From a virus (taxonomy: Duplodnaviria > Caudoviricetes): a stretch of 30,666 nucleotides of DNA. Below the pieces are notes generated by a model. The model saw nothing but the letters and a program-made list of their open reading frames with translations. It was not told the DNA's origin and made no database searches. A program made the translations under genes and the position numbers. The stretch is from IMG/VR virus record IMGVR_UViG_3300038379_000535, positions 1 to 30,666 of that record. One strand, written 5' to 3'. The stretch's first letter is position 1. The number at the start of each line of letters is the position of its first letter. Below, one piece after another: positions 3,355 to 30,576 of this stretch.

Positions 3355-4866
3355 GTGGCTGCCCTGCGCGAGCACTGGATCGACCGCCTCACCGCGCCTG
3401 TCGCGCCGATCTGGACGTTGCGGCGCCAGCGCGCGCGCACGGCGGCCGTGCTCCTGCGCCACTACGAGGCCGCCTCTGGCGGCCGCCGCACTCAGAACTG
3501 GTATCGCGCCAACGCCGACGCGAACGCCGTGCTCGGTCCGGCCCTGTCGCACATCCGCGCGTCGGCCCGTGACCTGGTGCGCAACAACCCGTACGCCGAA
3601 AGCGCCCTCTCGACCATCGCCGATCACGCCGTAGGCTGGGGCATCGCCGCCAAGCCCGAGCCGAAGAACGCGCGCGTCGAAGAGGTGTGGAAGTCATGGG
3701 CGGACAGCACCGCGTGTGACGCCGACGGTCGCCATGACTTCTACGGGCTGCAGAAGCTCGTCATGCGCACGGTCGTCGAGTCCGGCGAGGTCCTGGTGCG
3801 CCGCCGCATCCGGCGCGTCGAGGACGGCTGGCCGCTGCCCGTCCAGATTCAGGTGATCGAGCCGGACTATCTCGACACCAGCAAGGATGCCGAGCTGTCG
3901 AACGGCGGCCGCATCACGCACGGCGTCGAGTTCGACGTGCTCGGCCGCCGCGCCGCGTACTGGATGTTCCGTGAGCATCCCGGCTCTGCACGCATGACGC
4001 AGTCCGGCGTCTCGCACCGGGTGCCGGCGAGCGAGGTCCTGCACGTCTTTCGCGGCACGCGCGCGGGCCAGGTGCGGGCGGCCTCGTGGTTGGCGCCGGT
4101 GCTGCTGCGGTTCAAGGACTTCGACGAGTTCGAGGACGCGACGCTCATGAAGCAGAAGATCGCCGCATGCCTCGCGGTGATCACCAGTGACGTCGACGGA
4201 TCGGGCCCCGCCCTCGGCACGGCCGACGATACGGCAACGCCCGCCGTGGACTCGCTCGAGCCCGGCATGATCCTCAACGTGCCGCCTGGTCGCAACATCA
4301 GCGTGGTGAGCCCACCGGCGACGAACGGCGAGTATGGGCCCTACGCGCAGTCGGTCCTGCGCGCGATCGCGACCGGCATCGGCGTGACCTATGAGGACCT
4401 GACCGGCGATTACACGAACATGCCGTTCTCGGCGGCCCGGATGTCGCGACTGCGGCACTGGTCGCGCGTGGAAGACTGGCGCTGGCGGATGCTGATCCCG
4501 CAGTTCTGCATCCCGGCGTGGGGCTGGGCGATGGAGGCGGCCCGGGTGCTCGGGCGCGTCGACGGCGCGCCTGGCGTGCGCTGGAGCCCGCCCCCGATGC
4601 CGATGATCGAGCCCGACAAGGAAGGCCTTGCGTATCAGCGGAAAATCCGGAACGGGCTACAGAGCCTGCCCGAGGCGCTGCGCGAGCTCGGCTACGAGCC
4701 GGACGAGGTCTTCGACGAGATGGCCGAGACGAACAAGACGCTCGACGCGCTCGGCCTCATCCTCGACAGCGACCCGCGCAAGATGACGCAGGCCGGCCAA
4801 TTACAGGGAGCGGCGAAGCCCGACGACACCGGTGCGCCCCCTGACGCGGAGGAGACGGAGCCGTGA
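3355..4866 (+). CDS. Portal protein, lambda family
   Basis: RASARDLVRNNPYA, CDADGRHDFYGLQ, GVEFD..GR..AYW, GVTYEDLTGDY..MPFSAARM, GLILDSDPR. Confidence 0.97.
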   Translation: MAALREHWIDRLTAPVAPIWTLRRQRARTAAVLLRHYEAASGGRRTQNWYRANADANAVLGPALSHIRASARDLVRNNPYAESALSTIADHAVGWGIAAKPEPKNARVEEVWKSWADSTACDADGRHDFYGLQKLVMRTVVESGEVLVRRRIRRVEDGWPLPVQIQVIEPDYLDTSKDAELSNGGRITHGVEFDVLGRRAAYWMFREHPGSARMTQSGVSHRVPASEVLHVFRGTRAGQVRAASWLAPVLLRFKDFDEFEDATLMKQKIAACLAVITSDVDGSGPALGTADDTATPAVDSLEPGMILNVPPGRNISVVSPPATNGEYGPYAQSVLRAIATGIGVTYEDLTGDYTNMPFSAARMSRLRHWSRVEDWRWRMLIPQFCIPAWGWAMEAARVLGRVDGAPGVRWSPPPMPMIEPDKEGLAYQRKIRNGLQSLPEALRELGYEPDEVFDEMAETNKTLDALGLILDSDPRKMTQAGQLQGAAKPDDTGAPPDAEETEP

Positions 4867-5105
4867 TCGAGCGCAGCGATCGCACCAACGACGTGCCGCC
4901 GCCGAACATGCTGCCGTCCCGCCAGCGCGTCATCCTCGAGGTGATTCGCGAGTACTGCGCTGCCACGGGTGAGGGCTGCTCCGCGAGCTATCTCGCGCGC
5001 CGCCTGCGCGTCGATCACTCGACGGTGCGCGAGCACTTGGAGGCCCTGCACCGTAAGGGCTGGCTGCGTGCGCCGAACTCGCCCGCGTTGCCGCGCCAGC
5101 GCTGA
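4863..5105 (+). CDS. Stand-alone LexA-like winged-HTH DNA-binding protein (no peptidase domain)
   Basis: LPSRQRVILEVIREY...G...S...LARRL....STVREHLEALHRKGWL resembles the LexA N-terminal DNA-binding domain; GTGA overlap with the portal stop. Confidence 0.8.
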   Translation: MIERSDRTNDVPPPNMLPSRQRVILEVIREYCAATGEGCSASYLARRLRVDHSTVREHLEALHRKGWLRAPNSPALPRQR

Positions 5106-12221: not shown

Positions 12222-15200
12222 CGAAGAAGTCACAATCGTCCTGAGAGGCAAGAATCTCTCGACGCCGCAGTTCGAAGAGGCCCGCCGCCAACTGGCGGGT
12301 TTCAAGGACTCCGTCAAGGACACGTCCGGGCAGGTGAGCGGCCTTGGTGGGATCGTGAAGACCGCCGTCGGGACGATGACGGGATTCATTTCGGCGCAGG
12401 CCATCCTGGGCGCGGTGAGCGGCGCGTTCTCGTTCGCCAAGAGCGCGGCGATCGATATGAACGCGTCGCTCGAAAAGAGCACGCTGCAGTTCGCCACCCT
12501 CATGGGTGATACGGCGCGCGCGGAGCAACACGTCCGGTCCCTCTTCAACTTTGCCAAGTCAACGCCCTTCGAAACCGGTCCCGTCATCGAGGCGTCGCGG
12601 CACATGCAGACGTTCGGCGGCGATGCCCTGAATACGATGGACAATCTGCGGCTGCTCGGCGATGCGTCCGCCGCGACGAGCGCCCCGATCGAGGATCTCG
12701 GCTTCTGGGTGGGCCGCATGTATGCCTCGCTGCAAGGCGGGCAGCCGATTGGCGAAGCGACGATGCGCCTCATGGAGCTCGGCGTCCTGACGCCCCAGAC
12801 GCGGGTGCAGATGGAGGCCTTGGCGGCGTCCGCCGGCGGCGGGGAAAAAGCGTTCTCCCTGTTTCAGGCGAGCCTCGGCAAGTTCAGCGGCGCGATGGTG
12901 ACCCAGGCGAACACCTGGGACGGTCTGATGTCGTCAATCTCCGACGCAATCAACATCACGCTGGCGGATGCGCTTAAGCCGTTTTTCGACGCCGTCAAGG
13001 AGGGCGCGCAGATCGTCCTGCATGCTCTCGGCTCTGAGGGGATGTCTGGTGCAGCTGAGGGGCTCAAGAGGACACTGGCCGCAGTCTTCTCGCGGGATAA
13101 CCTGCTTGGCTTTCTCGATGGGTTGCTTGGCCTGGGGAGTGTGGCGCTGACGACCTTCGACGTCGTCAATCGTGCGGCCAACAGCCTCGGTGTGGTGTTC
13201 TCGACAGTGTTCTCCGGCGTCCTTCGGGGCGTTCAGGCAATGGTTGACGGGTTGCGGGCGGTTACCAACGCCGCGAGCTATGTCGATCCATCTGGCGGAT
13301 TCGAGAGGACGACCGAAGCGCTCGACCGCGCCAGTCAGTCCCTTGTAGGCCTTCGCGGCAGATTTGAAGAAGTGCAGTCCTCGACACTAGAAACGGTGAG
13401 AGGGCAGGGTGTCTTTACTCGGGTTGTTGTCGACGGCAAGGCTGCGATCGAGGCGATGCGCGCGGAACTTGGACGCACGACGGTCGCGACCAACGACCAG
13501 ACCCAAGCAACGGTGCGCGCCCGGCCGGCGCAAGAGAAGAGCGTCGTGCTCACCAAGGAGCAGACGAAGGCACTCAAAGAGGCGGCAGAGGCGGCCAAAG
13601 CCTTCGCCGCCTCCGTCGACTTCTTCGGCACGCGTCTCGACGCGTTCAACCACAATGCGCTCCAGCCTTACGCGGCGGGTCTGTCAGACGCCGCCGCGAA
13701 GGCAGACATCTTCGAAGCGACACAGCCGGTGCTCGCGTCATCGGCCACTGTTGCCGCCCGCGCGATCGAAGAGGCGTGGAGAGCGACGGGGAAGTATGTG
13801 CAGATGACGGGGACGGCCGTCAATCAGACCGGGCTCTTGAGCGGCGTCTTCAACAATCTCGGCCAGAACATCCTGGGCGCGTTTCAGGGGGGCGGCAACG
13901 TCGTCAAGTCAATCGGGTCTGACATTGGGTCGCGGCTCGGCGCCAACCTTGTGAAGAACTTCGGCACGAAGATCACGGGGGTCCTCGGCGAGACATTTGG
14001 CGGTGCGCTGAATGCCGCGTTGCCAGGGATCGGCACGTTGCTCGGTCCGCTGATGGAGAAAGTGTGGGGCGGGCTCAAGAGTCTCTTCGGCGGAATCTCC
14101 CCAGAAATCAAGAGAGCCCGCCAGGACGTCGAGGCCTTCCAGCAGGCGCTCGCGCAAACGCTCACGACGACACAGCAACAGGAAGCCGGCGGGGAGCGCT
14201 GGAAGATGTCGGTCATTGCAGTCCGTGACGCCTACCTGGCCACGGGCCGGACCGCCAGCGAAGCCGAGGCCATCGTCCGGCAGCTCTGGGACACCGATCA
14301 TCCCGACCGCGCGAAGGCCGCGATCGAACAGATCAATCTCGTGCTCGGCGAACAGCAGGGCATCCTGCAGGGCAACCGCGACGAATTGGCGCGCCTCACT
14401 GACGAAATGGAGGGGCTGAAGCGCGACGGCGAAATCACGTGGGAAAAGATGCGTGATGCCGCCGGCCGCTACGGCGTGCGGCTCAGTGAGCTCGGGACGG
14501 ACTTCCAGAACGGCCGTCTCCATGAGTCGTTCCAGACCATCTGGGATGACTTCGTGCTGCTCACTAAGGGTGGCGCGTCCGTGGGCGGCGTGTTGTTCGA
14601 CATGAAAGACGAGATCATCGCGCTGGCGCGCGAGTCCGTCGAGTTCGGCACGACGATCCCGGCGAACTTCCGCCCGCTGCTGCAGAACCTCGAGGAGGGG
14701 GGGCACCTGATCGACGAGAACGGGCAGAAGCTGCTCGACCTCTCCCAGGTGCAGTTCGGCGATCCGATCGTCGCGAAGCTCGACGCCATGACCGAGCGGC
14801 TCGGCGTGGTGGCGGACCGGATCACGGCGCTCACCGAGCTGCTCGCCTCCCGGCTGCCGGCGTCCGCCGATGCGGCGGCCCGCAGCCTCGAAGACACGAG
14901 CCGCCGCGGCATCACGGCGATGGAGGATCTCGGCCGGGCGATCAGCGACGAGGTCATCGAGATGCACTCGCCGACGGGGCTCGAAGGCATCGTGCACTAC
15001 GCCGGCCGCGCGCGCGAGGCCGTGATCCGGATGGCCGGCGATTCGATCATCCACGTGCGACAGTTTGCCGATGAGATCGGCCGCATCCCGCTGGTGATGC
15101 GCCAGGTCTCCGAAGGGCGCCTCCTTCCCGCTGGTGGCGGGCTGCTGATGAGCACGCCTCCCGTGCCGCTCGAGCGCGGGATTACCGAGACGATGTGGCA

Positions 15201-15449: not shown

Positions 15450-16217
15450 ATGCCCAAGCTGCGGTTTCTCGCCACGAATCGCTACCGAGCCTCGACGACG
15501 GCCCTCACCGCCTCGTCGGCGGTCTCCGCGCTGCCCGTCGGGGCCTCGCAGAACCCCGACCGGAGTTACATCTGGCGCAGCGTCGCCGGCACCGGCGTCG
15601 CGACAATCGACATCGACCTCGCGTCCGCGGTGGCGATTGATAGCGTGGCGATCGCCAACGTGAAACTCGTCGGTGCCGGCGTGCTCGAGCTCTACGAGCG
15701 CGGGTCGGCCGGCTCGCCGGGGAGTGCGACACTCGTCGCGACGCTCCCCACGCAGGACCGCGACACGCGCGCGGCGTTCGCGTTCTTCGCGTCGCAGACG
15801 AAGCGGCACTGGCAGCTGAAGTGGACCAACCCGGGCGCGGCGAACGACTACGCCGAGCTCGGCTACGCGTTCCTCGGCGCGTACAGCGAGGTGCCGACGA
15901 ACTTCCGGGTGCCCGTCGCCATCGATCGGGCGGATCCGTCGATGGGGTCAGCGTCGGTTGATGGCCAGGAAACCTGGGCGCGGCGGTCGAAGTTCTTCGC
16001 GGGCGCGTGGGAGTTCGTCCGCGTGTCCGACGCGATGCTGGACCAGCTCCGGCTGCTCTGGGACACGCTCGGCGTGAGCGGCGAGTTCTTCCAGGTGGCC
16101 GATACGGGGCTGCCGTGGACCTGCTGGTATGCGCGGTGCTCTGGCGGGCTGCGTGCGGAGCTGATGGAGCTCGCCGGGCGCTACACGGTGACCCTGCCCT
16201 GGCGTGAGGTGCGGTAG
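15450..16217 (+). CDS. Distal tail (Dit-like) protein
   Basis: Directly after the tape measure; N-terminal galactose-binding-like segment (SYIWRS...IDIDL...IDSVAIAN), C-terminal YTVTLPWREVR. Confidence 0.6.
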   Translation: MPKLRFLATNRYRASTTALTASSAVSALPVGASQNPDRSYIWRSVAGTGVATIDIDLASAVAIDSVAIANVKLVGAGVLELYERGSAGSPGSATLVATLPTQDRDTRAAFAFFASQTKRHWQLKWTNPGAANDYAELGYAFLGAYSEVPTNFRVPVAIDRADPSMGSASVDGQETWARRSKFFAGAWEFVRVSDAMLDQLRLLWDTLGVSGEFFQVADTGLPWTCWYARCSGGLRAELMELAGRYTVTLPWREVR

Positions 16218-16658
16218 ATGGCCGACAACATCACCCTCAACCCGGGGACCGGCGGCGATACGCTCGCCGCGAAGGACGCGTCGAGCGTCAAACATCAGCG
16301 GGTGCTGGTCGAGGCCTCGGTGGCGGGGACGCCGACGGACGTCTCCGCGGCGGCGCCCCTCCCGGTCGTGGCGCGGCGCCGCGGGAGCGCGGACCTCCTG
16401 CTCGACTACCACGCGATGGCGACGTCGGAGCAGAACCCGATCACGGCCACGCTGCACGTCGAGGACGGCCTGGTCATCAACCCCACAAGCAGCCAGGTGC
16501 ACTTCACATTGAAAAACGGCAGCGACCAGGCGTTCTTTACGACCACGCCGATCCCGCCCTTCTCGGCGTTTCCCTTGCCCCCGATGACCTTGACCGGCGG
16601 GCTGAAGATCACGGCCTCAAGCGCGTCGATGCGCCTGCATCTGAGGTATACGCAGTGA
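16218..16658 (+). CDS. Hypothetical virion-associated protein (small beta-sandwich)
   Basis: Abuts the upstream stop (TAGATG); MADNITLNPGTGGDTLAA...KHQRV N-terminal arm; beta-rich; no signal peptide. Confidence 0.7.
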   Translation: MADNITLNPGTGGDTLAAKDASSVKHQRVLVEASVAGTPTDVSAAAPLPVVARRRGSADLLLDYHAMATSEQNPITATLHVEDGLVINPTSSQVHFTLKNGSDQAFFTTTPIPPFSAFPLPPMTLTGGLKITASSASMRLHLRYTQ

Positions 16659-17281
16659 GCCCGACTACCGATCGTCTGTTGCGCGTGCTGCTCTCGACCG
16701 CGCTGGCGCTGCTGCTACTCGATGTGGCGGCGCGGGCGACCGGCGCGGGGTCCGCCTCGCGGGTGCTGGCGCAGTTCGGGTCCGTGATCGTCACGAACAC
16801 GGTGACGGTCAACGTCGACGACGCCAGCGTCGAGGACCCCCTTGGCGAGCTGGCCGGCTCGATCAACAGCAGCGTCCTCGACGTCAACGTGAAGCAGGTC
16901 GGGGGCGCGGCCACGGCCGCGAGCCCCTGCCTACAGACCACCGTCACGACCGATCCGATCTCCGTCACGGCCGACACGGTCATCATCGCGAAACACGCGA
17001 CGAAGAAGACCTACATCTGCAACCTACTGCTCGTCGCGACGACGGCCGAAACTGTGTCGATCATTGAAGGGGACGGCACGACGTGCGCGAACAACCGCGC
17101 GGCGCTCGCCGGGTCGACGACGGACGCGAGCGGCATGGCGTTCGGGGCCACGGGCGGGGTCATCGCGGTCGCCGGCGATGGCGTGGTGCTCAACGGCAAG
17201 ACGGCCAATCGGGACGTCTGCCTCAACGTCAGCACGGGCGGCGTGCGGGTCGCCGGGTGGGTGACATGGGCCCAGCAGTGA
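16655..17281 (+). CDS. Putative exported protein (signal peptide/anchor, 4 Cys)
   Basis: MSPTTDRLLRVLLSTALALLLLDVAARA...RVLA-QFG; beta-rich mature part; GTGA and TGATG coupling to neighbours. Confidence 0.7.
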   Translation: MSPTTDRLLRVLLSTALALLLLDVAARATGAGSASRVLAQFGSVIVTNTVTVNVDDASVEDPLGELAGSINSSVLDVNVKQVGGAATAASPCLQTTVTTDPISVTADTVIIAKHATKKTYICNLLLVATTAETVSIIEGDGTTCANNRAALAGSTTDASGMAFGATGGVIAVAGDGVVLNGKTANRDVCLNVSTGGVRVAGWVTWAQQ

Positions 17282-18117
17282 TGCGTCGGCCCCCACTCGG
17301 CGCCGCACTGATGGCGCTCGCGATCGCGCTCCTGCTCGCGACGGTTCCGCTCCGGGCCGCGGTGGCGTTTGCCCTCGTGACCAGCGGCGAGATCAACGAC
17401 TCGACGGATGCGAACAGCTACACCGGCTCGTCGGTCTCGCTGACGTCAAACAACCTCTATCTCTTCGCCGTGACGAATCGGCGATCGACGGCGACCGTGA
17501 CGACGCCGACGGTGTCGGGCACGAGTTGTTCGTGGGACCAGGTCGCGACCCGGCCATTCGACACGGAGGCGTCGCCGACGCAGCGCCTCACGGTGTTCCG
17601 CTGCCTCGATGCCTCTCCCGGCTCCGGCGCACTGACCGTCGACTTTGGCGGCGTGACGCAGACGGGCATCATCGCCCGGCTCGTCGAGGTCACGGGCATC
17701 GACACCGGCGGCACGAACGGGTCCGCGGCCATCGTCCAGACGCCGGCGACCAATTCATCGAATGCGGCGACGAGTCTCACGTGCACGCTCGGCGCGTTCA
17801 GCGATGCCGGGAACGGCACGATCGGGTTCTTCGCGTCGAATGCCAACGCGGCGATCACGCAGGGCTCGGGCTTCTCGCTCCTGTATGACGTCGGCAACTC
17901 GGCGCCGAACCGGCGATTGATGATCGAGACGCGCACCGACAACGACACGACCGTCGACGCCACCTTGAGTTCAGCGTCCGTGGGGTGTATCGCGCTGGAG
18001 ATCAAGGCCGCCAGTGGCGGCGGTGGGGGGACGCCCTGCGTCCGGACGCTGCTCGGCGTCGGCTGTGACACGTGGGCATGGCTGCAGGCCCACGTGGCCG
18101 GCTGGAGGCGCGGCTGA
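17281..18117 (+). CDS. Putative exported Ser/Thr-rich beta protein (signal peptide, 6 Cys)
   Basis: ATG 17281; MRRPPLGAALMALAIALLLATVPLRA-AVAF; two beta repeats, Gly linker, C-terminal CVRTLLGVGC. Confidence 0.75.
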   Translation: MRRPPLGAALMALAIALLLATVPLRAAVAFALVTSGEINDSTDANSYTGSSVSLTSNNLYLFAVTNRRSTATVTTPTVSGTSCSWDQVATRPFDTEASPTQRLTVFRCLDASPGSGALTVDFGGVTQTGIIARLVEVTGIDTGGTNGSAAIVQTPATNSSNAATSLTCTLGAFSDAGNGTIGFFASNANAAITQGSGFSLLYDVGNSAPNRRLMIETRTDNDTTVDATLSSASVGCIALEIKAASGGGGGTPCVRTLLGVGCDTWAWLQAHVAGWRRG

Positions 18118-21100
18118 TGCGACGTCTGCTGCCGCTCGTCCTCGCGCTCGTCGCGCTGCTCGGCCTGACGGCCCCGCTCGCGGGGCAGTTCCCGAGCTTC
18201 CGCGTCATCCCGGCGAGCACGCCGCCGGACGAGGACCCGCCGGGCGATCCAGGCGACTACCACATCGGCTACGCCAGCGCGGCGACCGAGCGGACGCGGC
18301 TGCAGGCCACCGACGCGGCCGGCGGCGAGCGCGAGCGCCTCCAGCACTACGCGAACTGGGCGGTCAATGTCCTGCTGGCGCGGCGCAACGGGACCTCGGT
18401 GCTCGGTGTGCAGGATGCCCCGACGGAGGGCAACTACTACGGCGAGGATGCCGGGACGCTCGCCTCGATGTTCGCGACCTTCGCCAGCCTGGACCCGGGT
18501 CATGCCTCATGGTCGGGCCTCGTCACGTGGCCGGCCGCCATCGACACGGCGCAAGAGAACGCGGACCTGGCGTGCGCCGTGCTGCGCTACTCGACGCGTA
18601 TCCGGTCTGGGGACAACTGGAGCGCCGATGGCCGGACGCTGCTCGAGAAAGCCACGCAGGTCCTGACGAGCGGCAACGCCAGCACTAAGGCCGACGGCCC
18701 GGTGCCGCACATCTGGAAGGCCTGGCCGGCGCAGGTGTACTCCTGGGCGCCGTACGTGCGGCCGCGGCTCGTCGGGCTGGCGTCGGCCGGCTGCCTGGCC
18801 GACATCGACGCGGTGCTCGAGCAGTTCGCGGACGTGGGTCTCGGCCACATCACGAAGGCCAGTAGCGACTACCCGGTCCTGACCGAACAGGAAGGCTGGA
18901 ACAATACCTCCTTCTCGTCGTGGCTGCTCCTCACGCTGCCGGGGCTGGCGGACATCCTCGACCTCAGCGTCTTCGACGCGACCCAGGAGGCCGCGGTCAA
19001 GACGGCGTTGAACCGCTTCTACCTCCGGACGAAGGAGGAGTTCGCCGTTGCCTACACGACGAACGGCGCGCCAGCCCCGGGCTTCCATGAGGGGACGGGC
19101 AGCGAGTACGCGCGCGACAACCTGACCGGGGTGAGTCGGCTGTACCTGTGGACGTGGCCCTTGACCGGGCTCAACGACCTGGTCGCGGGTACCTGGCTGC
19201 GTGACAGCGTGGCGCAGAAGGCGCTCGAGATCCTGCCGATGCAGTGGGGCCATACCCCGCCCCTGAAACCGTTCGCGGTGCGGTGGGGCATCATCCCGCA
19301 GGGCCACTCGAACTTCGACGACGCGGCCAGCTCGTGGGCGCTCTTCAAGGCGGCGCTGAACCGTGCGGGCTACCCGACGCAGGCGGGCCAGTTCCAGTGG
19401 ATGGAAGAGCAGTTCGGGGTCAACTTCACAACGATCCCGAGCACCACGGCGAAAGTGCCGTCGGCCATCTACGACAACACCGGTGGCGGCAACTCGCAGT
19501 ACCAGGCCGCATGGTACTGGCCGATCGTCTTCGGGAAGCTCGGCGGGATGGTTTCGACGCCGATTACGTCGATCTCCACGGCGAAAGGCCCGATGGGCTA
19601 TCGCGTGTGGAACTGCGTGTTCTCGCTGCCGGCGTGTGCGGCGCGTCCGCCGACTGAGGCGACGCTCGTCGCGCTCAACTGGTCGGACGTCGCGTACTAC
19701 GGCCACACCACGAACGACACGAACCGCGGATGGTCGCTGGTCAGCCGCGGCGGCTACGTCATCCTCCCGCAACTCGGCCACGGGAAGACGGGCTTCGGCA
19801 CGCACAGCACGGGCGGCGTGCGGGGGCGCTCGCAGTTCATTCCCTGGGTCGACGGGGCGCTCGATTACACCTTCAGCGGATCGGGCGGCATCATCGGCAA
19901 CCGCACGGTCCATCCGGCCTTCACCAACTTCTCGAACGCGTCCGCCTGGGACCGCATCGCGACGCGCTACGTCGATGACCCGGACAACGTCAATGGCGGC
20001 CTCGTGTGCGACGCCGTGACGATGTACGCGACGGGTGTCATCACGACGAACGGCTGGCAGGAATGCGTCTGGGTCCGCCCTGATGACGATGTCGTCGTCA
20101 CCTTCGCCAAAATCACGCCGGCCGACCCCACCAACGACGTCATCGTCCGGCAATCGGTCCTGCCGGTGCAGCCCGGCTTCGAAAACGGCACGTCCTCGAA
20201 GCTGGCGCTCGGCACCTGGCGCTCGACGAATGCGACGACGATGCGGGTCGTCAACCACAGCGGCGCCGCGGCGACGTTCAGCGCGACCGACCAGGACGGC
20301 GCCTCGTCGAATACCCAGGTCTGGGCCCGCGCGCACGTCAACGCGCTCCTGCACTACCGGTCGGCGGATGCGTTCCACGTCTACTGGTTTGGCCACGACC
20401 CGGCGTATCCCGTCGGCGCGCTTCGAAACAACCTCGAGATTCCAAAGCCGGGCCGCGATGCCGCGCATTGGGGCCGGAACACGCGGAGCTGGCGGCGCTG
20501 TCAGAACGGCGCGTACACGGACGGCGCGAGCACCCGGGTCTATCTGACGTGCGTCTACGACGAGACGGGCACGCCGCGGGCCGTCATCGACGCCGATCTC
20601 CCCGATTCGCTCGCCGGGCAGTGGTTCGCGCAGAGCCAGGGCGGCAACCCGGGCTTCCGCACGATCGCCTCGGTGGATCGCACGACGACGCCGAAGTCCA
20701 TCATCCTGAGCGGCGCGACGGTCAACTGGCCGATCGGGACGCCGCGCCACTTTGATCTCCTGGACGACAGCTCGAGCCAGAACGAGTTGGGCTACGACAT
20801 CGCCGGCGACGGCGCCGATGTCCGCCGCGTGATGGGGGCGGGCCTGCTGGCGATCGTGCCGCCGGGCGCGAACCCGGCGAAGACGGAGTTGTGGGAGGCG
20901 ATTCAACTCGGCGACGATGATGCCCCGCCAACCGCCGCGACTGTGACGCAGTCGGTCGAGACGGACGTCCAGACGCTGCTGTATCAGGCGGGCACGACGC
21001 GGATCGCCTTCACGGTGGGGCGCTCACATATCACGTCTCTCGCGGGCGGCTCGTGCTTGGCGAGCACCGACTACCTGATCGACACGCTCGAAGACGTCGA

Positions 21101-21284
21101 GGCCGACCACGCCGAACTGTGCCCGGGCTCGGCCTGGACGGTCACCGGGGCTGTTGAGAGCGGCACGAAGATTCGGATGACGCTCAGTAATTCGGGCGGC
21201 TCGTTCGTCGTCAACAGCCAGGGCCGGCTGGTGGTCCTGGTGTCCGAGGCGGGCGGCGTCGTCTCGGTGAAGGCGGCCCAATGA
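18117..21284 (+). CDS. Large putative exported polysaccharide lyase-like protein (heparinase II/III-like architecture)
   Basis: RBS GGAGG, ATG 18117; signal MRRLLPLVLALVALLGLTAPLAG-Q; helical N-half with GWNN and FHEGTGSEY; beta C-half with YYGHTTNDTNRGWSL; 10 Cys. Confidence 0.6.
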   Translation: MRRLLPLVLALVALLGLTAPLAGQFPSFRVIPASTPPDEDPPGDPGDYHIGYASAATERTRLQATDAAGGERERLQHYANWAVNVLLARRNGTSVLGVQDAPTEGNYYGEDAGTLASMFATFASLDPGHASWSGLVTWPAAIDTAQENADLACAVLRYSTRIRSGDNWSADGRTLLEKATQVLTSGNASTKADGPVPHIWKAWPAQVYSWAPYVRPRLVGLASAGCLADIDAVLEQFADVGLGHITKASSDYPVLTEQEGWNNTSFSSWLLLTLPGLADILDLSVFDATQEAAVKTALNRFYLRTKEEFAVAYTTNGAPAPGFHEGTGSEYARDNLTGVSRLYLWTWPLTGLNDLVAGTWLRDSVAQKALEILPMQWGHTPPLKPFAVRWGIIPQGHSNFDDAASSWALFKAALNRAGYPTQAGQFQWMEEQFGVNFTTIPSTTAKVPSAIYDNTGGGNSQYQAAWYWPIVFGKLGGMVSTPITSISTAKGPMGYRVWNCVFSLPACAARPPTEATLVALNWSDVAYYGHTTNDTNRGWSLVSRGGYVILPQLGHGKTGFGTHSTGGVRGRSQFIPWVDGALDYTFSGSGGIIGNRTVHPAFTNFSNASAWDRIATRYVDDPDNVNGGLVCDAVTMYATGVITTNGWQECVWVRPDDDVVVTFAKITPADPTNDVIVRQSVLPVQPGFENGTSSKLALGTWRSTNATTMRVVNHSGAAATFSATDQDGASSNTQVWARAHVNALLHYRSADAFHVYWFGHDPAYPVGALRNNLEIPKPGRDAAHWGRNTRSWRRCQNGAYTDGASTRVYLTCVYDETGTPRAVIDADLPDSLAGQWFAQSQGGNPGFRTIASVDRTTTPKSIILSGATVNWPIGTPRHFDLLDDSSSQNELGYDIAGDGADVRRVMGAGLLAIVPPGANPAKTELWEAIQLGDDDAPPTAATVTQSVETDVQTLLYQAGTTRIAFTVGRSHITSLAGGSCLASTDYLIDTLEDVEADHAELCPGSAWTVTGAVESGTKIRMTLSNSGGSFVVNSQGRLVVLVSEAGGVVSVKAAQ

Positions 21285-23293
21285 CCGCCCCGCTCTGGCT
21301 GAACCTCGGCGGCCCGGTCGCGGATACGACCTTCGCGGAGTTCCTCGCGTGGCCGGACCGTACCGAGCACGTCCTGGTGGAGGCGGATCCGTCGATCACG
21401 CTGACGGGGTGGACGGCCACGGGGGGCAGTTACCCGACGACGTATCAGGTCTCGCGGCCGCGGCTGGTGCAGACGACCGAGGTGCCGGGTGGCCTGTACG
21501 CGCCCGTCCTGGGCGTGACGGAGGAGGCGACCGCGCTCACGTCGCGCCCCTCGATCGCGCTGGTCGAGGCGAACCCCGGGAGCTGGTACTGGGACGAGGC
21601 GGCCGGCGTGCTCTACGTCCACTCGACGACCGGCGCCTCACCCGCGAGCTTCGTCCACGTCGAGGCCATTGTGCGTCTGTATCTGGGCACGGCCCCCGTC
21701 GTCCTCAATCGGACCGCCAGCGACCCCGCGACGGGCGTGTACTACCATCCCTGGCTCCGCGGTGACTTGCCGGAGATCGCGTCGATGGTCGAGGACCTGC
21801 TGCACGGGACGAAAATCATCCCGGACGGCAGCGTCACCTTCACGAACGGTCATGGGGCCTGGCATGCGCTGATCGCGCCGGACGGCCCGTGGAACTGGAA
21901 GAACCGCACGATCACCTGCCTGGTGGGCGGGGTGTTCAACGGGCGCACGCTGACGCGGGCGCAGTACGCCACGATGGCCACGATGCGCGTCGAAGACGTC
22001 GCGGCCGACGAGGAGCGCTGCGCGTTCACGCTGACGCCCGTGACCCGCGCGACCGTGCGCCAGGTGCCGGTCACGTCTTTCGACGAGGCGACCTATCCGG
22101 CGCTCGGCGATGGGGTCCGCGGCGCGAAGAAGTGGATCGGCTACGGCCGTGCCACGATGCCGCCGGATCTCACCGACACGACGGGCCACGGGGTCTACAC
22201 GATCGCTGACGCGGCGTCGCAGACGCTCTTCGCGGTCCATCAGGTCTGGGCGATCGACAAGTCCACGGGGGAGTGGACGTCGCTCACCGAGGGGCTCCAC
22301 TACAGTGTCGACCTGGTGGCCTGCACCCTGACGATCCTGGACGCCGCCTATCGCTGGCAGGACGTCCGGCTCGCGGTCGACGTCACCGGGAAGCCGGACG
22401 GGAGCGGTGGCTACCTCCGCACCTTCGCGGCGATCGTCCAGGATCTGCTCGTCACATTCCTCGGGGTCGCGACCGACGCGATCGATACCGAGGCGTTCAC
22501 GGCGGCCGCCGTCGAAGGCGCGGCCGAAGAGATCGCCTGCTGGGTAAAGGATCCCCGCGAGATCGCCTCGCTCTTCACGACCTCGGAGCCGGCGACGCCC
22601 TCGCTCGGCCGCTCGGTGATGGGCACCGTGCAGCAGTCGTCCGCCGGCCAGTGGACCTGCCGGCTGTATACGCCGGCGGTGCCCGAGGCGCTGACGGCGC
22701 TGCGCAAGGAGGACTTCACGCGCTTCACGCCGGCGCCGCAGTTCCAGACCGTCTACGCCGGCGTGCAGGTCTACTACAACTACGACGCGGTCCGCGGCCA
22801 GTGGTCCGTCGTCGAAGAGACGGATCCGGCGACCACCTATCGGACGAAGTCGACGGACGTCCTGCCGATCTATACCTTCCTGCGGAGCGCCGGCGCCGCG
22901 CGCGCGCTGGCGCAGCGCTACTTGCTCCTGGCCGGCAAGGTGCTCACGACCGCGGCGTTCGAGGAGCGCGGCGCCCGGCTGGCGCAGCACATCGCCGGCG
23001 ACAAGGTGCGCGTGACGTTCAGCCCCGCGCCGAGTGCGGCAGGCGCCTACGTGGACAAGCCGTTCGAAATCACCGAACTGCGCCTCAGGTTCGCGCCCAA
23101 GCTCGGCGTCTCGGGCGTGCTGAACGACATCCGGGATCTCGGCGGGAAGGTGGGGCGGTGGATGGACGCGGCGGCGCCGAATTGGGCGAGCGCGACCGAC
23201 CTCGAGCGGCAGTCCAGCGGCTTCTGGACGGACGCGAACGGGCTGGCGGACTCTGGCGATCCGACCTCGGGTGGTCGGTCGCTCTGGTGGTGA
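21281..23293 (+). CDS. Tail tip/hub (Tal-like) protein
   Basis: 670 aa, after the Dit-like gene and before the fibre; AAIVQDLLVTFLGV...ID..AF, ARALAQRYL, GDKVRVT are hub-like segments. Confidence 0.65.
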   Translation: MTAPLWLNLGGPVADTTFAEFLAWPDRTEHVLVEADPSITLTGWTATGGSYPTTYQVSRPRLVQTTEVPGGLYAPVLGVTEEATALTSRPSIALVEANPGSWYWDEAAGVLYVHSTTGASPASFVHVEAIVRLYLGTAPVVLNRTASDPATGVYYHPWLRGDLPEIASMVEDLLHGTKIIPDGSVTFTNGHGAWHALIAPDGPWNWKNRTITCLVGGVFNGRTLTRAQYATMATMRVEDVAADEERCAFTLTPVTRATVRQVPVTSFDEATYPALGDGVRGAKKWIGYGRATMPPDLTDTTGHGVYTIADAASQTLFAVHQVWAIDKSTGEWTSLTEGLHYSVDLVACTLTILDAAYRWQDVRLAVDVTGKPDGSGGYLRTFAAIVQDLLVTFLGVATDAIDTEAFTAAAVEGAAEEIACWVKDPREIASLFTTSEPATPSLGRSVMGTVQQSSAGQWTCRLYTPAVPEALTALRKEDFTRFTPAPQFQTVYAGVQVYYNYDAVRGQWSVVEETDPATTYRTKSTDVLPIYTFLRSAGAARALAQRYLLLAGKVLTTAAFEERGARLAQHIAGDKVRVTFSPAPSAAGAYVDKPFEITELRLRFAPKLGVSGVLNDIRDLGGKVGRWMDAAAPNWASATDLERQSSGFWTDANGLADSGDPTSGGRSLWW

Positions 23294-23295
23294 GG

Positions 23296-23529
23296 ATGCG
23301 GACGATCGAGGTGCGGTGCAACGCGTGCGGGGTGACGATACCCGCCAAGCCGGCGACCCTCTGGACGCTGGACGACGAAGGCACGCCGCGGCGGACGGGC
23401 CCGCTCGACTTCTGCTCACTCCCCTGTGTGGCGCGCTGGGCGCAGGACGACGAGGTGCGTGCCGCGTATCCCGCCGACTTCGCCCCGGCCGTGCGCGCCG
23501 ATGGCCTTACGCCCGAGGAGTCGCGCTGA
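23296..23529 (+). CDS. Small Cys4 metal-binding (TRASH/zinc-finger-like) protein
   Basis: MRTIEVRCNACG...LDFCSLPC; fills the gap; TGATG coupling to the fibre gene. Confidence 0.7.
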   Translation: MRTIEVRCNACGVTIPAKPATLWTLDDEGTPRRTGPLDFCSLPCVARWAQDDEVRAAYPADFAPAVRADGLTPEESR

Positions 23530-26204: not shown

Positions 26205-26627
26205 ATGGATCTACGAACAGGAAAGACGTACGCGAGCGTCGTGGTGCTCCTGGCGCTGCTCGGAGGCGTCGTCGATGCCGCCGCCCAGCCGAAGCCGGTG
26301 ATCCCGGTGCTCGGCGTCGGCGAGCTCGTGCTCGTCGTGGATGCGCCGCTGGCCAGAGCGCAGGCGCAGACGTATCGCGCCTACATCGACGCACGGCCGG
26401 CGCTGGCGCTCACGGTGACGTGTGTGGCGGTTGGGAGCGGCAGCGAGTGCGCGGCACCGCTCAGCGCGCTCAAGCTGACCGGGCAGCATGCGATCGAGGT
26501 GACGGCCGTGGTCGTGGCCGCGGACGGCGAGCGGGAGAGTCCGCGGGTGGCACTCCCTTTCGACTTGTCGTTGGCGGCTCCCCCTGTCGCCCCGAGCGCG
26601 TCGGGCAAAGTGCGCCCGCAGCCGTAG
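26205..26627 (+). CDS. Putative exported Ig/FN3-like protein
   Basis: RBS AGGAG; signal ...YASVVVLLALLGGVVDAAA-QP; Cys pair; C-terminal PVAPSASGKVR. Confidence 0.7.
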   Translation: MDLRTGKTYASVVVLLALLGGVVDAAAQPKPVIPVLGVGELVLVVDAPLARAQAQTYRAYIDARPALALTVTCVAVGSGSECAAPLSALKLTGQHAIEVTAVVVAADGERESPRVALPFDLSLAAPPVAPSASGKVRPQP

Positions 26628-26700
26628 CGATCGGGGTGATGGCGTGGACCCAATGGGACATCGAAGTGGACGCGCTGGGGCGTGTGCTGGCGAGGCCGCG

Positions 26701-27171
26701 ATGCTGACCAAAGTGGGCGTGACCTATCAGGACTGGGTACGCGAGACGGCCGATCAGGCGTGGCGCTACCGCGCGATGCGCGCGTTCATGACGTGTTGTG
26801 TGGCCGTGGCCCTCGTCCTCGCGATGGTCACGCTCTGGATCGTGACACTCAGCGCGCAGAAGCCCGCACCCGCCCGCGTCGGCGCGCCGATCCTCCTCGA
26901 GTGGGACGCGGTCGAGGGCGCGGAGTCGTATCGGGTGACGGTGCTCTCGAATGGGCATCGGTGGCCGTGGGATGTGAGGGAGCCGCGGATGTTGATCCCC
27001 GCGCCGCTCGTCGGGCAGGTGTTCGAGGTGCGAGTCGCGGCGGTGATAAACGGCGAGGCTTCGTCGCCGGCGAGCGTGACCGTGGTGGGGCGATCGAAGA
27101 TGGGGACGAGTCAGGCACCGAGTGCGCCGATTCGCGTGAGGATTCGGCGGCCGGAGGCTGGAGACGAGTAA
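26701..27171 (+). CDS. Putative exported FN3-like protein (alternative start 26776)
   Basis: MRAFMTCCVAVALVLAMVTLWIVTLSA-QK; FN3 signature LEWDAVEGAESYRV...FEVRVAAV.NG..S. Confidence 0.75.
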   Translation: MLTKVGVTYQDWVRETADQAWRYRAMRAFMTCCVAVALVLAMVTLWIVTLSAQKPAPARVGAPILLEWDAVEGAESYRVTVLSNGHRWPWDVREPRMLIPAPLVGQVFEVRVAAVINGEASSPASVTVVGRSKMGTSQAPSAPIRVRIRRPEAGDE

Positions 27172-27786
27172 ATGGCCGACCTGTGCACGGGATCGTCGAG
27201 TCCGAACAGCTGCTCGCACTTCGTCGTCCAGGGCGTCGACGACGGAGAGGCATGGTCGCTCCATACGAGCGACGGCGAGTTGTCCGAGCCATTGACCGCA
27301 GAGGAGTCCGCCACGCTCCGGCGGCTCTTGCTCAGGAAGCTGCGACAGAAGGGGATTCCGCTGCCGCAGTTTATTGGCCGCGTGGTGCGCGGCGAGGAGG
27401 CAACAAACGTGAAGAGTTGCAACCTGCTTGGCCCTGGCGTGACCGTGACGAAGACGAACATCGGCACGTCGTGGGTGAACGTGCTCCCTGGGGCCAACGG
27501 TGAGCGGTCGCTGGTGGACTTCACGGGCTGCACCGAGTATCGGCTCATCGCGAGTGCGAACCTCGTGGGGAGTGGCCCCTTCGGTCTGCGTGTCGTACGG
27601 GACAGCGACTCGGTGGCGCTTTACGAGAACGCGAACATCGCGCAGACGGGCGAGCGCGAATTGGACACCGATTGGCAGACGCTTCCGGCGGAGGCAAGTG
27701 GTCTCGCGTTGGTGCGCGTGCAGGCAAAGTCGGTCACGGCCACGGATGACCCGGTGTTTCGCCGGGTGACGATGCTGGTGAAGTAG
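27172..27786 (+). CDS. Hypothetical virion-associated protein
   Basis: RBS GGAG; abuts the upstream stop; beta-rich C-terminal domain. Confidence 0.65.
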   Translation: MADLCTGSSSPNSCSHFVVQGVDDGEAWSLHTSDGELSEPLTAEESATLRRLLLRKLRQKGIPLPQFIGRVVRGEEATNVKSCNLLGPGVTVTKTNIGTSWVNVLPGANGERSLVDFTGCTEYRLIASANLVGSGPFGLRVVRDSDSVALYENANIAQTGERELDTDWQTLPAEASGLALVRVQAKSVTATDDPVFRRVTMLVK

Positions 27787-27787
27787 C

Positions 27788-28891
27788 ATGCCCTACAACC
27801 CGTTCAGCCTCACCGGGATTGCCCCCGAATCCGTGATTATGTCGTCGTCGACGGGGTATGGGGATATATCCCTGATGATCCTGGATGGGACCACGGAGAA
27901 ACTCGGCTTTCGGTTTTTCGCCTCTGGTGCATCAGCGATCACCCATGTGAATGTCCGGCTCAACATCGTCGGGACACCGGGAAGTTTTCGCACGGGGATC
28001 TTCACGGACGACGGCACGGGCAACACACCAAATGCGCAAGTAGGCGATTGGACGGGGACTTGGGCCGCGCCCGGCGCTGATGGCATGTCCGGCGCGCAGG
28101 CCCTCGCGACGGACACGGGTGACTTGACGCCAGGGGCCGCCTATTGGGTCGTGATTGAGTATGTCAGTGGCACACTCGATGGGTCGAACTACATCCAACT
28201 ACAACGGCTCGCGAACGTGGGGGCCAGTCTCAGCATGGTGCTGTGTCGTCACCATAATGGCACGAACTGGACCACCACTACCTCACAGACGGCAACGCCG
28301 ATCTTCACGTTAACACACGCGGATGGCGATCTCACGGGCTATCTCGCGGGACAGTCGGCGTCCATCAGTAATTCATCGGCCACGGCGATCTACGGCAGTA
28401 ATCGTGAGGCCCTGCGGTTCCGGTCGGGCGCACAGATGCGGGTGTACGGGTGCCTGTTCATGATCGACAAGGTCGGGACACCGACCAGCGGGTTGGTCAT
28501 CAGTGTCTACGAGGGTGACACCCTCAAGAGCACGATCACGCATGCGGCTGGGTTTGTGGCGGACTCCAGCGGTTCGACATTCCCGGCGTTATTCGATGAT
28601 CCCCCGCTGCTCTCGGCGGACACGGACTTGTTCATCGTCTTCGAGCATGAGAGTGCCGGCGGGAGCGGGAGTCAGTACTATCGCCTGTGGGTCACGCGCT
28701 GTATATCGGAGGCGGAAGTCGAATTACTGGCCGGCGAACATTGGAAGATGGTGTATGGGTCTGGGAATCCATCCACGATGACGCCGGTCACGACGGAGAT
28801 TCCTTTTGTGACGCTGCTCACCAAACTGCCTGCGGAAGGGTTTGACCAAGCGCGCGTCTCCCCCCGCACACGCCCCCTAAGGAGGGCCTAA
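27788..28891 (+). CDS. Putative carbohydrate/receptor-binding protein with two tandem beta-sandwich domains; lower GC
   Basis: Repeated F-R-F...(N/K)xxGTP pattern, LTPGAAYWVVIEY; related to the domain inserted in the fibre. Confidence 0.65.
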   Translation: MPYNPFSLTGIAPESVIMSSSTGYGDISLMILDGTTEKLGFRFFASGASAITHVNVRLNIVGTPGSFRTGIFTDDGTGNTPNAQVGDWTGTWAAPGADGMSGAQALATDTGDLTPGAAYWVVIEYVSGTLDGSNYIQLQRLANVGASLSMVLCRHHNGTNWTTTTSQTATPIFTLTHADGDLTGYLAGQSASISNSSATAIYGSNREALRFRSGAQMRVYGCLFMIDKVGTPTSGLVISVYEGDTLKSTITHAAGFVADSSGSTFPALFDDPPLLSADTDLFIVFEHESAGGSGSQYYRLWVTRCISEAEVELLAGEHWKMVYGSGNPSTMTPVTTEIPFVTLLTKLPAEGFDQARVSPRTRPLRRA

Positions 28892-28892
28892 C

Positions 28893-29405
28893 ATGCCTGC
28901 CCCGCCTGCTCTCGACAACGCCCGCACCGGCACGCCGGACGGTTCGAGTGGGATTCAGATCGCGACCGTCGTCGTCCAGGAGGGCACCTTCGAGGCCCCG
29001 GCCGGCATCGCGCTCACCGACCGGCTCGCGGCCGGCCTGACGCCGGACCGCAACGACATCAGCGCCGTCGACACGGCGACGGACATGTCGACGACGGACT
29101 TCGCCGGCAGCTCGGGCGCGAACCTGTTCGCGATCAACAACCGGGGGGCGATCGTCGTCTGGTGCACGTTCGACGACGCGGTCGCCTCGGCCACGGTGCG
29201 GCTGATTTACTACGACGGCAGCAACAACCCGCTGTTCGTCGGGCCGCCGCTGACGTTCACGGCGCTGGCGCAGCGCATCTCGTCCTCTGGTCACTACATG
29301 ACAGAGCCGCAGATCGTCGAGTCCTACGGGGCGAGCAAGTGCCGGCCGTATCTCGTGACGCTCGGCAGCGGCAACGTCGCGGACATCTTCGCGCACCCGA
29401 TCTGA
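28893..29405 (+). CDS. Hypothetical virion-associated protein (small beta-sandwich)
   Basis: RBS AAGGAGG; high-GC3 codon usage; beta-rich C-terminal domain. Confidence 0.7.
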   Translation: MPAPPALDNARTGTPDGSSGIQIATVVVQEGTFEAPAGIALTDRLAAGLTPDRNDISAVDTATDMSTTDFAGSSGANLFAINNRGAIVVWCTFDDAVASATVRLIYYDGSNNPLFVGPPLTFTALAQRISSSGHYMTEPQIVESYGASKCRPYLVTLGSGNVADIFAHPI

Positions 29406-29419
29406 GGTAATGGACCGAC

Positions 29420-30118
29420 ATGAGCTTCGGCGCGATCCCGCTGCTGTTCTGGCGGACGTCAGCAGGCACAGCCTACTCGCTCGTCTGCGAGGCCGGCAGC
29501 GTCACGATCGCCGGCCAGTCGGCAGCGCTCGAACGTGGGCTGAGGCTCGTTGCTGCGGCGGGGACGGTCGAGGTCGCGGGACAAGCGACGACGCTGCGCG
29601 CGTCCCTGACACTCGCGTGCGGATCTGGGGCGGTCGAGATTGCGGGCGGCGCGGCGACGCTGATCCGGGGCAAGTTCGTCGTCGCCGAGAGTGGGAGCGT
29701 CACGGTTGCCGGGAGCGCGGTCACCCTGCGCGTCTCGCGGCTGTTGGCTCTGGCCGCCGGGGCGGTGCTGGTCGTCGGCTCGTCAATAGGGCTGACGGTG
29801 CACCGAGAGGTCGTAGCCGAGGCTGGTGCCGTCGTCGTCAGCGGGCAGGCGGCGGCGCTACGGCACGGCCGCGCGATCGTCGCGGGGTCTGGTGCCGTCA
29901 CGATCGCGGGATCGTCGGCGGGTCTGCGGGCGGATCGACGACTCGTCCTCGGGGCCGGCACGGTCGTGGTGGCCGGCACGGACGTGACGATGACGGTCGG
30001 CGTGATCTCCGCGATCACGCTCCTGTCGCTGACCGACGAAGTGCTCCGTGTCGCGGGGGCGACCGGCGAAGTGTGGCGCGTGGCGGGCGTGTCGGGTGAG
30101 ACGCTGCGACCGAGGTGA
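29420..30118 (+). CDS. Repeat protein: eight 22-aa beta repeats plus 10-aa C-terminal repeats
   Basis: Exact 22-aa periodicity (L/V)xAxxGxVxxxGxxxxL over aa 21-196. Confidence 0.75.
   Translation: MSFGAIPLLFWRTSAGTAYSLVCEAGSVTIAGQSAALERGLRLVAAAGTVEVAGQATTLRASLTLACGSGAVEIAGGAATLIRGKFVVAESGSVTVAGSAVTLRVSRLLALAAGAVLVVGSSIGLTVHREVVAEAGAVVVSGQAAALRHGRAIVAGSGAVTIAGSSAGLRADRRLVLGAGTVVVAGTDVTMTVGVISAITLLSLTDEVLRVAGATGEVWRVAGVSGETLRPR
29480..30007 (+). repeat. Degenerate 66-bp coding tandem repeat, 8 copies
   Basis: LVCEAGSVTIAGQSAALERGLR / LVAAAGTVEVAGQATTLRASLT / ... / LVLGAGTVVVAGTDVTMTVGVI. Confidence 0.85.
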
Positions 30119-30144
30119 CCATCAGAGATCGGGAGGACTGACGA

Positions 30145-30576
30145 ATGGCTGCGTTCAACCGCTACAACATCTTCGCCGAGGATCTGGCGAACAAGATTCA
30201 CGACCTCTTCGGCACGACCGACACGCTGAAGGTGCTCCTCTCGAACACGGCCCCGAACGCGGCGACCCATGCCGTGAAAGCGGATGCCACCGAGATCTCG
30301 GCCGGCAATGGCTACTCGGCCGGCGGGGTCGACATCGACAACGACGGCACGCGCAGCACGAACGTGGTGACGGTGACGGCCGCCGACAAGACGATCACAG
30401 CGTCGGGCGGATCCATCGGCCCCTTCCGCTACGCGATCCTCTACAACGACACGCCGACGTCACCCGCTGACCCGCTGATCGGCTGGTGGGACTACGGGTC
30501 GAGCATCACGCTCGCGGACGGGGAGTCCTTCACGTTGGACTTCGGCGCGAGTCTGCTGACGATCACGGCGAGCTAG
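30145..30576 (+). CDS. Conserved phage virion structural protein (fibre/appendage subunit candidate)
   Basis: RBS GGAGG; DTLKVLLSN.AP, EISAGNGYSAGG, ASGGSIGPFRYAILYNDT, LIGWWDYGSSITLADGESF match a widespread phage protein pattern. Confidence 0.8.
   Translation: MAAFNRYNIFAEDLANKIHDLFGTTDTLKVLLSNTAPNAATHAVKADATEISAGNGYSAGGVDIDNDGTRSTNVVTVTAADKTITASGGSIGPFRYAILYNDTPTSPADPLIGWWDYGSSITLADGESFTLDFGASLLTITAS

Follow-up and report, generated by a model that had tools for sequence, protein, structure and literature searches.

Four genes at positions 16,218 to 21,284 of IMG/VR virus record IMGVR_UViG_3300038379_000535 form a coupled insert between two likely tail genes of a phage, and the N-terminal leaders of three of their products go together with paired cysteines (Cys) in the mature proteins; this observation is real and not an artefact. 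The window analysed here is the whole virus record, a linear stretch of 30,666 bases that is 62% complete and has a GC content of 68%. The phage is lambda-like and tailed, judging by its GpA-type terminase and lambda-family portal protein, and the window also encodes a protease, a capsid protein, a gpZ-like neck protein, tail tube and tape measure proteins, and an M15 endolysin. The reading that we favour, and hold to be moderately probable, is that the three leader-bearing products are appendages that leave the cytoplasm by export, fold with disulfide bonds and attach to the virion, at lysis or later, via peptide-in-knob contacts. Sec export of the three products and formation of their disulfides in the periplasm are each likely, given the sequences, and the docking of exported products on virions is plausible.

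The insert is bordered on the left by a Dit-like gene (15450..16217, + strand), which lies 3' of the tape measure gene, and on the right by a hub/Tal-like gene (21281..23293, + strand). In L001, a related phage, 12 genes of the window are matched in the same order, from the protease to the hub, and there the Dit-like gene (52% identical to that of the window) is immediately followed by the hub-like gene (45% identity across 616 columns). The four window genes are therefore an insert, as the first-pass annotation of this DNA had held. Both flanking genes are named for where they lie behind the tape measure gene: neither protein is named by a family in Pfam, PHROGs or NCBIfam, the only match of the Dit-like gene is phrog_8610, of unknown function, and a viral-locus search gave no loci for the hub-like gene or for the last cassette gene, 18117 (genes are designated by their first position). 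The only sequencing run that contains this DNA is a freshwater metagenome, possibly its source, and no RNA data set was listed as containing it; contigs of one run, possibly the source of this DNA, cross both cassette borders without differences. All junctions are coupled and read TAGATG, GTGA, TGATG, TGATG and ATGA in the sequence, and a sigma-70 scan of the region from 14.5 to 22.5 kb returned 0 promoter-like sites and no terminator on the + strand. The codon adaptation of the cassette genes (0.68-0.74) is like that of the core genes, and their GC content at third codon positions (0.88-0.92) matches that of the core genes. The earlier claims of coupled junctions and of a cassette unlike typical morons are thus borne out: the cassette shows no promoter or terminator of its own in that scan, lacks the atypical composition of a moron, and shares with morons a sporadic insertion between conserved genes.

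The first product, that of 16218 (16218..16658, + strand; 146 aa), has no leader and 0 Cys and consists of a MADN module and a small predicted beta domain; it is a candidate cytoplasmic adaptor on the virion side. The product of 16655 (16655..17281, + strand; 208 aa) is predicted to comprise a signal peptide, a short fibre-like stalk and a jelly-roll knob (aa 88-208), and that of 17281 (17281..18117, + strand; 278 aa) a signal peptide, a Ser/Thr-rich domain of ~220 aa, a Gly linker and a C-terminal peptide. The largest, that of 18117 (18117..21284, + strand; 1055 aa), has a predicted signal peptide and a Pro/Asp linker, followed by a large helical-then-beta protein. No family in Pfam, PHROG or NCBIfam names any of the four proteins, and no useful match for them was found among the sequences of solved structures; a Pfam row for 17281 at E 0.063 was disregarded.

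Leaders were called with a Sec-signal heuristic of our own rather than with SignalP. It flags four of the 34 called genes in the window (16655, 17281, 18117 and 26205), is passed by 1-8% of composition shuffles, and is passed by 0 of 1226 internal pseudo-starts of the three cassette proteins. The leaders of these three, noticed already in the first pass, look real by this sequence measure. An earlier concern, that the true starts might lie downstream of the leaders, fails for 18117, whose first 70 codons hold no other in-frame start, but keeps some force for 16655 and 17281, in which in-frame GTGs lie 3' of the leader, without a clear ribosome site, so that a second, leaderless start is possible. 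The mature cysteine counts are even, as first reported, with four in 16655 (C92, 122, 144, 189), six in 17281 (C83, 108, 168, 236, 253, 262) and 10 in 18117, all outside the leaders.

The association between leaders and paired cysteines extends to the protein family of 16655, the C-terminal 120 residues of which define 2818 representatives at E <= 0.001. Examined were the best 150 of these 2818 and three proteins from another search. A leader is present in 135 of the 153, and most of the 18 leaderless proteins look truncated or mis-started. The domain contains at least four Cys in 150 of the 153, and each of its four Cys columns is filled in 82-83 of 83 aligned rows. Among the 135 leader-bearing proteins the mature Cys count is even in all but one (134/135); Cys outside the conserved domain are even in number in 99 of the 100 proteins that have them, where about half would be expected. 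In a reducing cytoplasm, a rule of even Cys numbers would serve little purpose. The leaders vary in sequence and keep their pattern across the 135 proteins, a small residue followed by Gln being found at positions 15-42 in 127 of them versus 25/135 in a control stretch. The Gln after the leader recalls the Q-rule of Bacteroidetes (PMC5837995, in which a term search gave nothing on other phyla), a parallel that was set aside and that fits a phage of 68% GC in no tested way. The stalks are variable, and protein length ranges from 142 to 1419 aa. The earlier proposal of export and disulfide formation is thus strongly supported by conservation across the family. The Cys positions of 17281 and 18117 are mostly not conserved: what recurs is the tail clamp alone in the one and the even number alone in the other.

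The AlphaFold model of the 16655 domain has a predicted local distance difference test score (pLDDT) of 95. Foldseek with this model gave no match at E <= 0.001, and VIA-align brought out single jelly-rolls at Z 7-8, namely those of Ena fibres, the STIV turret, YomS, XepA and the KHP40 cement protein. By hhalign, the knob matches the leaderless, Cys-poor C-terminal domains of MADN-type phage proteins (prob 89, E 2e-6, against a profile of seven hand-picked rows), and 16655 looks like an exported, Cys-stapled version of a cytoplasmic phage knob. The knob occurs in ten other non-redundant loci, in six of which (L081, L082, L213, L215, L216 and L220) Pfam confirms a capsid or terminase gene nearby; the remaining four were not checked for such flanks or are without them, and three pattern matches were left out (L218 and L219, which have no knob, and L222, a duplicate of L213). 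Of the 54 genes that lie at most three places from the knob gene in the 11 loci, 25 have a leader, and a rough background is 26/704 genes of at least 100 aa. In L081 the knob open reading frame is separate from a leader-bearing one upstream, and in L215 the leader lies behind a probably mis-called start. The appendage-like character suggested in the first pass is supported by the jelly-roll fold and by repeated occurrence next to capsid or terminase genes, with five or more distinct capsid families represented. A further recurrent neighbour is a 60-aa leader-bearing peptide with two Cys, which precedes the knob gene in three unrelated phages (L213, L216 and L217).

The gene after the knob gene supplies a candidate docking tag, a Cys-clamped peptide of the type C-x(4)-LLGVG-C (18037..18066, + strand; aa 253-262 of the 17281 product), in which the C-terminal LLGVG is flanked by C253 and C262. 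By a fixed rule, an LLGVG-type tail is found in four of the 16 genes lying at most two positions downstream of a knob gene versus 14/991 genes elsewhere, and in L082 and L215 it fits by eye only. In L081, L082, L213, L215 and L216, the gene that follows the knob gene terminates in such a tail. The Cys clamp is present in the window, L081, L082, L215 and L216, and is lacking in L213 and in 13/13 leaderless LLGVG-type tails. In leaderless loci, a gene ending in LGVG stands directly upstream of six of the 15 MADN genes, against 11/1040 other positions. In L217 and L221 the gene after the knob gene has a Gly-rich hydrophobic peptide at its mature N-terminus instead of its C-terminus, and in L217 the leader of this gene has a twin-arginine look.

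A second candidate tag, on the virion side, is an N-terminal extension of the hub-like protein (21281..21328, + strand; aa 1-16) that is lacking in L001. The alignment of the two proteins begins at window residue 17 and L001 residue 4, which leaves ~13 extra residues, including WLNLG, in the window protein. Similar N-terminal peptides occur in 6/14 MADN loci versus 2/66 others, on unrelated proteins; W-x-NLG is fused like a portable tag to the N-termini of unrelated proteins beside MADN genes at L199:10026-10532, L190:8597-9664 and L193:3871-4386. The MADN module itself, the first ~50 residues of 16218, is present in 13 viral loci, often among structural genes. A full-length 16218 homologue of 152 aa (E 1.1e-5) is coupled in L083 to a 1243-aa gene of the 16655 family, a pairing that supports the role of leaderless partner proposed for 16218 in the first pass. 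No homology to the knobs could be demonstrated for the 16218 C-terminal domain by hhalign (prob 4 and 0.2).

The history of the 17281 domain, a likely beta-sandwich adhesin or lectin for which 60 protein homologues and 79 viral loci were found, indicates that leaders come and go. Among 130 non-redundant domain rows, 13 were flagged as leader-bearing, one of them falsely (P0015), and in 92 of the 117 unflagged rows the domain begins at residue 1-4; the leaderless homologues thus begin where the window leader would be cut. On a quick tree of the family the leader label needs 10 changes, at least four of them forced by well-supported branches, and leaders were therefore gained or lost repeatedly. 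The viral members with a leader at the 17281 domain (L026, L035 and L042) sit in runs of leader-bearing Cys-rich genes, 3' of capsid genes of other families. Over 63 non-redundant loci (16 near-duplicates of 84 were left out), adjacent leader pairs number 10 versus 3.2 in within-locus shuffles (p 0.0002), and Cys counts are even in 12/17 leader-bearing versus 162/406 other proteins (p 0.02). In other phages, leader-bearing enzymes (a metallophosphoesterase and an M11 peptidase) adjoin leaderless 17281-family genes at L020:5294-7936, L077:5284-7950 and L063:9570-10835.

For 18117 one homologue was found, P0062, with 48% identity, a leader of its own and, by visual count, 12 Cys. In the ESM Atlas, the neighbours of 18117 are heparinase II/III-like clusters with PF07940 (0.91, 152/256 features). 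The lyases of that family resemble 18117 in these language-model features, in size, and in a helical N-half and beta C-half, as seen in a low-confidence single-sequence model (pLDDT 33). Unlike them, 18117 has no Pfam, hidden Markov model or profile match to the family: four sequence tests against PF07940 were negative, including the Pfam cut-off and a profile of our own built from eight family members. The suggestion of an enzyme among the products therefore survives as a lead only, with features of the language model pointing to a heparinase-II/III-like polysaccharide lyase and the sequence tests against it.

A mechanism in keeping with these observations would run as follows. The four genes form an optional insert of the late operon, three products of which would be exported by Sec, stapled by disulfides in the periplasm, and joined to the tail tip as host-recognition appendages when lysis mixes the compartments. 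The 16655 product would be an oligomeric jelly-roll knob that grips the Cys-clamped LLGVG tail of the adhesin-like domain of 17281, in the manner of the RcGTA head spike, while leaderless 16218 would bind the extra N-terminal peptide of the hub in the cytoplasm and present a landing site; 18117 would be cargo that cuts surface glycans. In the RcGTA head spike (base Rcc01079, fibre Rcc01080), a pentamer of jelly-rolls grips an Ile/Leu-Gly repeat peptide that belongs to the capsule-binding fibre (PMC7296036). The likeness lies in a small jelly-roll oligomer and a hydrophobic-Gly terminal peptide on a particle, oligomer and binding being proposed for the cassette. Unlike the RcGTA proteins, the cassette knob and peptide protein have export leaders and Cys pairs; the cassette peptide stands at the C-terminus, and its genes are located near those for the tail tip. 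Rcc01079 was not among the listed fold matches of the 16655 knob.

Several results weigh against virion docking. Of all the steps, the contact between exported and cytoplasmic parts has the least support. The collection of cultured phages that was searched contains no match to 16218, 16655 or 17281, and there is therefore no virion proteome. The fold matches of the knob (Z 7.1-8.2) score no higher than a common arrangement would give, include non-virion proteins and imply no function; one of these, the jelly-roll late protein XepA, is reported as exported yet absent from particles (PMC6834076). The 16655 family was gathered with a profile of leader-bearing sequences; the leader count is biased by this, the Cys parity outside the domain is not. 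Of the 10 Cys of 18117, P0062 shares the position of only one, and the core Cys of 17281 are neither conserved in position nor more numerous with a leader (1.6-1.75 versus 1.5-1.7). A leader on the 17281 gene does not go significantly with leaders on its neighbours (p 0.053, 63 loci). Both peptide rules, for the LLGVG tail and the WLNLG N-terminus, were framed once the sequences had been seen. In L082, as in most knob loci, the knob has no MADN gene in its neighbourhood, and 16218 therefore cannot be a universal anchor. Finally, the 17281 domain is to be seen as a general extracellular module, because it is also found in large bacterial proteins: 53/106 pattern loci were matched, and 19 of the 54 matched proteins have a leader. 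These pattern matches are mostly to large proteins of a diverged subfamily (E ~1e-8 to 1e-19) in Acidobacteriota assemblies. Close relatives of the domain are also present in very large bacterial proteins, some with leaders, in L148 (Geobacter), L162, L144 and L154, the Geobacter protein having 28 Cys.

The best surviving alternative, which we regard as possible but rather unlikely, is that the proteins are exported late and never join the virion, serving instead to loosen capsule or biofilm for progeny release, to mask receptors, or to act as soluble decoys. XepA, reported as exported and absent from particles (PMC6834076), has a fold similar to the knob (Z 7.1, root-mean-square deviation 4.8, 100 aligned), as does YomS (Z 7.4); the likeness of 18117 to secreted lyases in language-model features, the fourth leader-bearing gene (26205) beside the endolysin, and the differing position of the module among operons would all suit export as an end in itself. 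Against this explanation stand the same domains and terminal peptides that occur leaderless among structural genes, where Sec export is impossible, and the hub-like protein, which gained its matching peptide together with the insert. XepA and YomS, moreover, come from Bacillus subtilis prophages, XepA being linked to lysis in a monoderm host (PMC6834076), and unlike them the 16655 family has classical leaders, four conserved Cys and variable stalks; the fold match to the two (Z 7.1-7.4) ties with unrelated jelly-rolls.

That the cassette is lysogenic-conversion cargo, its products being host-type surface or secreted proteins made by the prophage from an internal promoter, seems quite improbable. 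The cassette is sporadic, being absent from L001, the 17281 domain is at home in large bacterial proteins with leaders, and Bdellovibrio cells display phage-fibre-like proteins, the MAT fibres (PMC10769870). The likeness to these fibres is that of phage-fibre-like adhesins that leave the cytoplasm; unlike the cassette, which is coupled within a phage structural operon, the MAT genes are chromosomal and their products displayed on cells. The internal lysogenic promoter that the first pass had considered found no counterpart in the sigma-70 scan of 14.5-22.5 kb, and coupled junctions, the want of a + strand terminator in that scan and core-like codon adaptation also speak against such cargo. Nor did 401 genomes sampled from the phylum of G004 yield the 16655 family, in a search with no positive control, and neither did two patterns in the species genome collection. 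Least likely of all is a reading in which the leaders do not act as Sec signals, or internal starts skip them, and the proteins are ordinary cytoplasmic tail decorations: the calls come from our heuristic alone, GTGs follow two of the leaders and about nine in ten 17281-family rows are leaderless, but the leader pattern with its small residue and Gln is kept across 135 varying sequences, the even-Cys rule is ill-suited to a reducing cytoplasm, and 18117 has no alternative start.

If exported appendages do dock at lysis, the case may be a general one. It is tentatively proposed, with rather less assurance than for the cassette itself, that a large number of uncultured tailed phages infecting diderm bacteria complete their virions beyond the cytoplasm, with Sec-exported, disulfide-stapled knobs, lectins and lyases snapped on at lysis by portable peptide tags, namely a Cys-clamped LLGVG tail and, at the N-terminus, a WLNLG tag that could be grafted onto different structural proteins. 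Tailed phages would then have a second assembly compartment. The common view is that their particles are assembled entirely in the cytoplasm, and a signal peptide is often taken as a ground for excluding a gene as structural; the ~2,800 sequence clusters with leaders and fixed Cys pairs, recurring in the structural operons of unrelated phages, challenge that exclusion rule. Docking at lysis would make periplasmic folding and host-type secreted adhesins and enzymes usable for host recognition, swappable via short peptide tags, and the cassette points to two small, testable interfaces. A literature search on titles and the openings of abstracts, covering few subscription journals, brought up no paper on Sec-exported structural proteins of tailed phages. 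The LME-1 paper leaves signal peptides unmentioned, and a figure legend in bioRxiv 10.64898/2026.09.13.751334 presumes that a tailspike needs no export.

Jelly-roll cement and turret proteins (KHP40 7DOU, GP4 8H89, Pam1 7EEL, HFTV1 8QPG, STIV 4IND) share the fold class of 16655, with weak matches, none at E <= 0.001. These capsid cement and turret proteins are not known to be Sec-exported. Virion proteins made with Sec signals do exist in filamentous phages, namely pIII and pVIII, and the disulfides of pIII form in the periplasm; inoviruses assemble at the membrane without lysis. Unlike filamentous phages, the phage of the window is lambda-like, tailed and built in the cytoplasm.

Other genes of the window bear on the cassette less directly. 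The fourth leader-bearing protein is encoded by 26205 (26205..26627, + strand; 140 aa, 2 Cys), just 3' of the M15 endolysin gene; no homologue was found among the viral loci compared, and the product may be part of the exported set or serve in lysis. In L001, a leader-bearing tail-fibre-like gene of its own lies 3' of the hub gene (13118-14278), with a weak match to the Peptidase_S74 chaperone (E 0.0075, below the cut-off). Downstream of the endolysin in the window (26205-30576) lie seven more genes that resemble small beta-domain decoration proteins, and homologues of two genes there, 29420 and 30145, are numerous among the structural genes of other phages. A 367-aa gene at 27788-28891 has the lowest codon adaptation (0.45) and a GC content near 62%, and is likely a recent acquisition. 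Between the hub-like gene and the next tail gene, 23296-23529 encodes a 77-aa protein with two CxxC motifs, and between the portal and protease genes an 80-aa gene (4863-5105) has the look of a helix-turn-helix protein.

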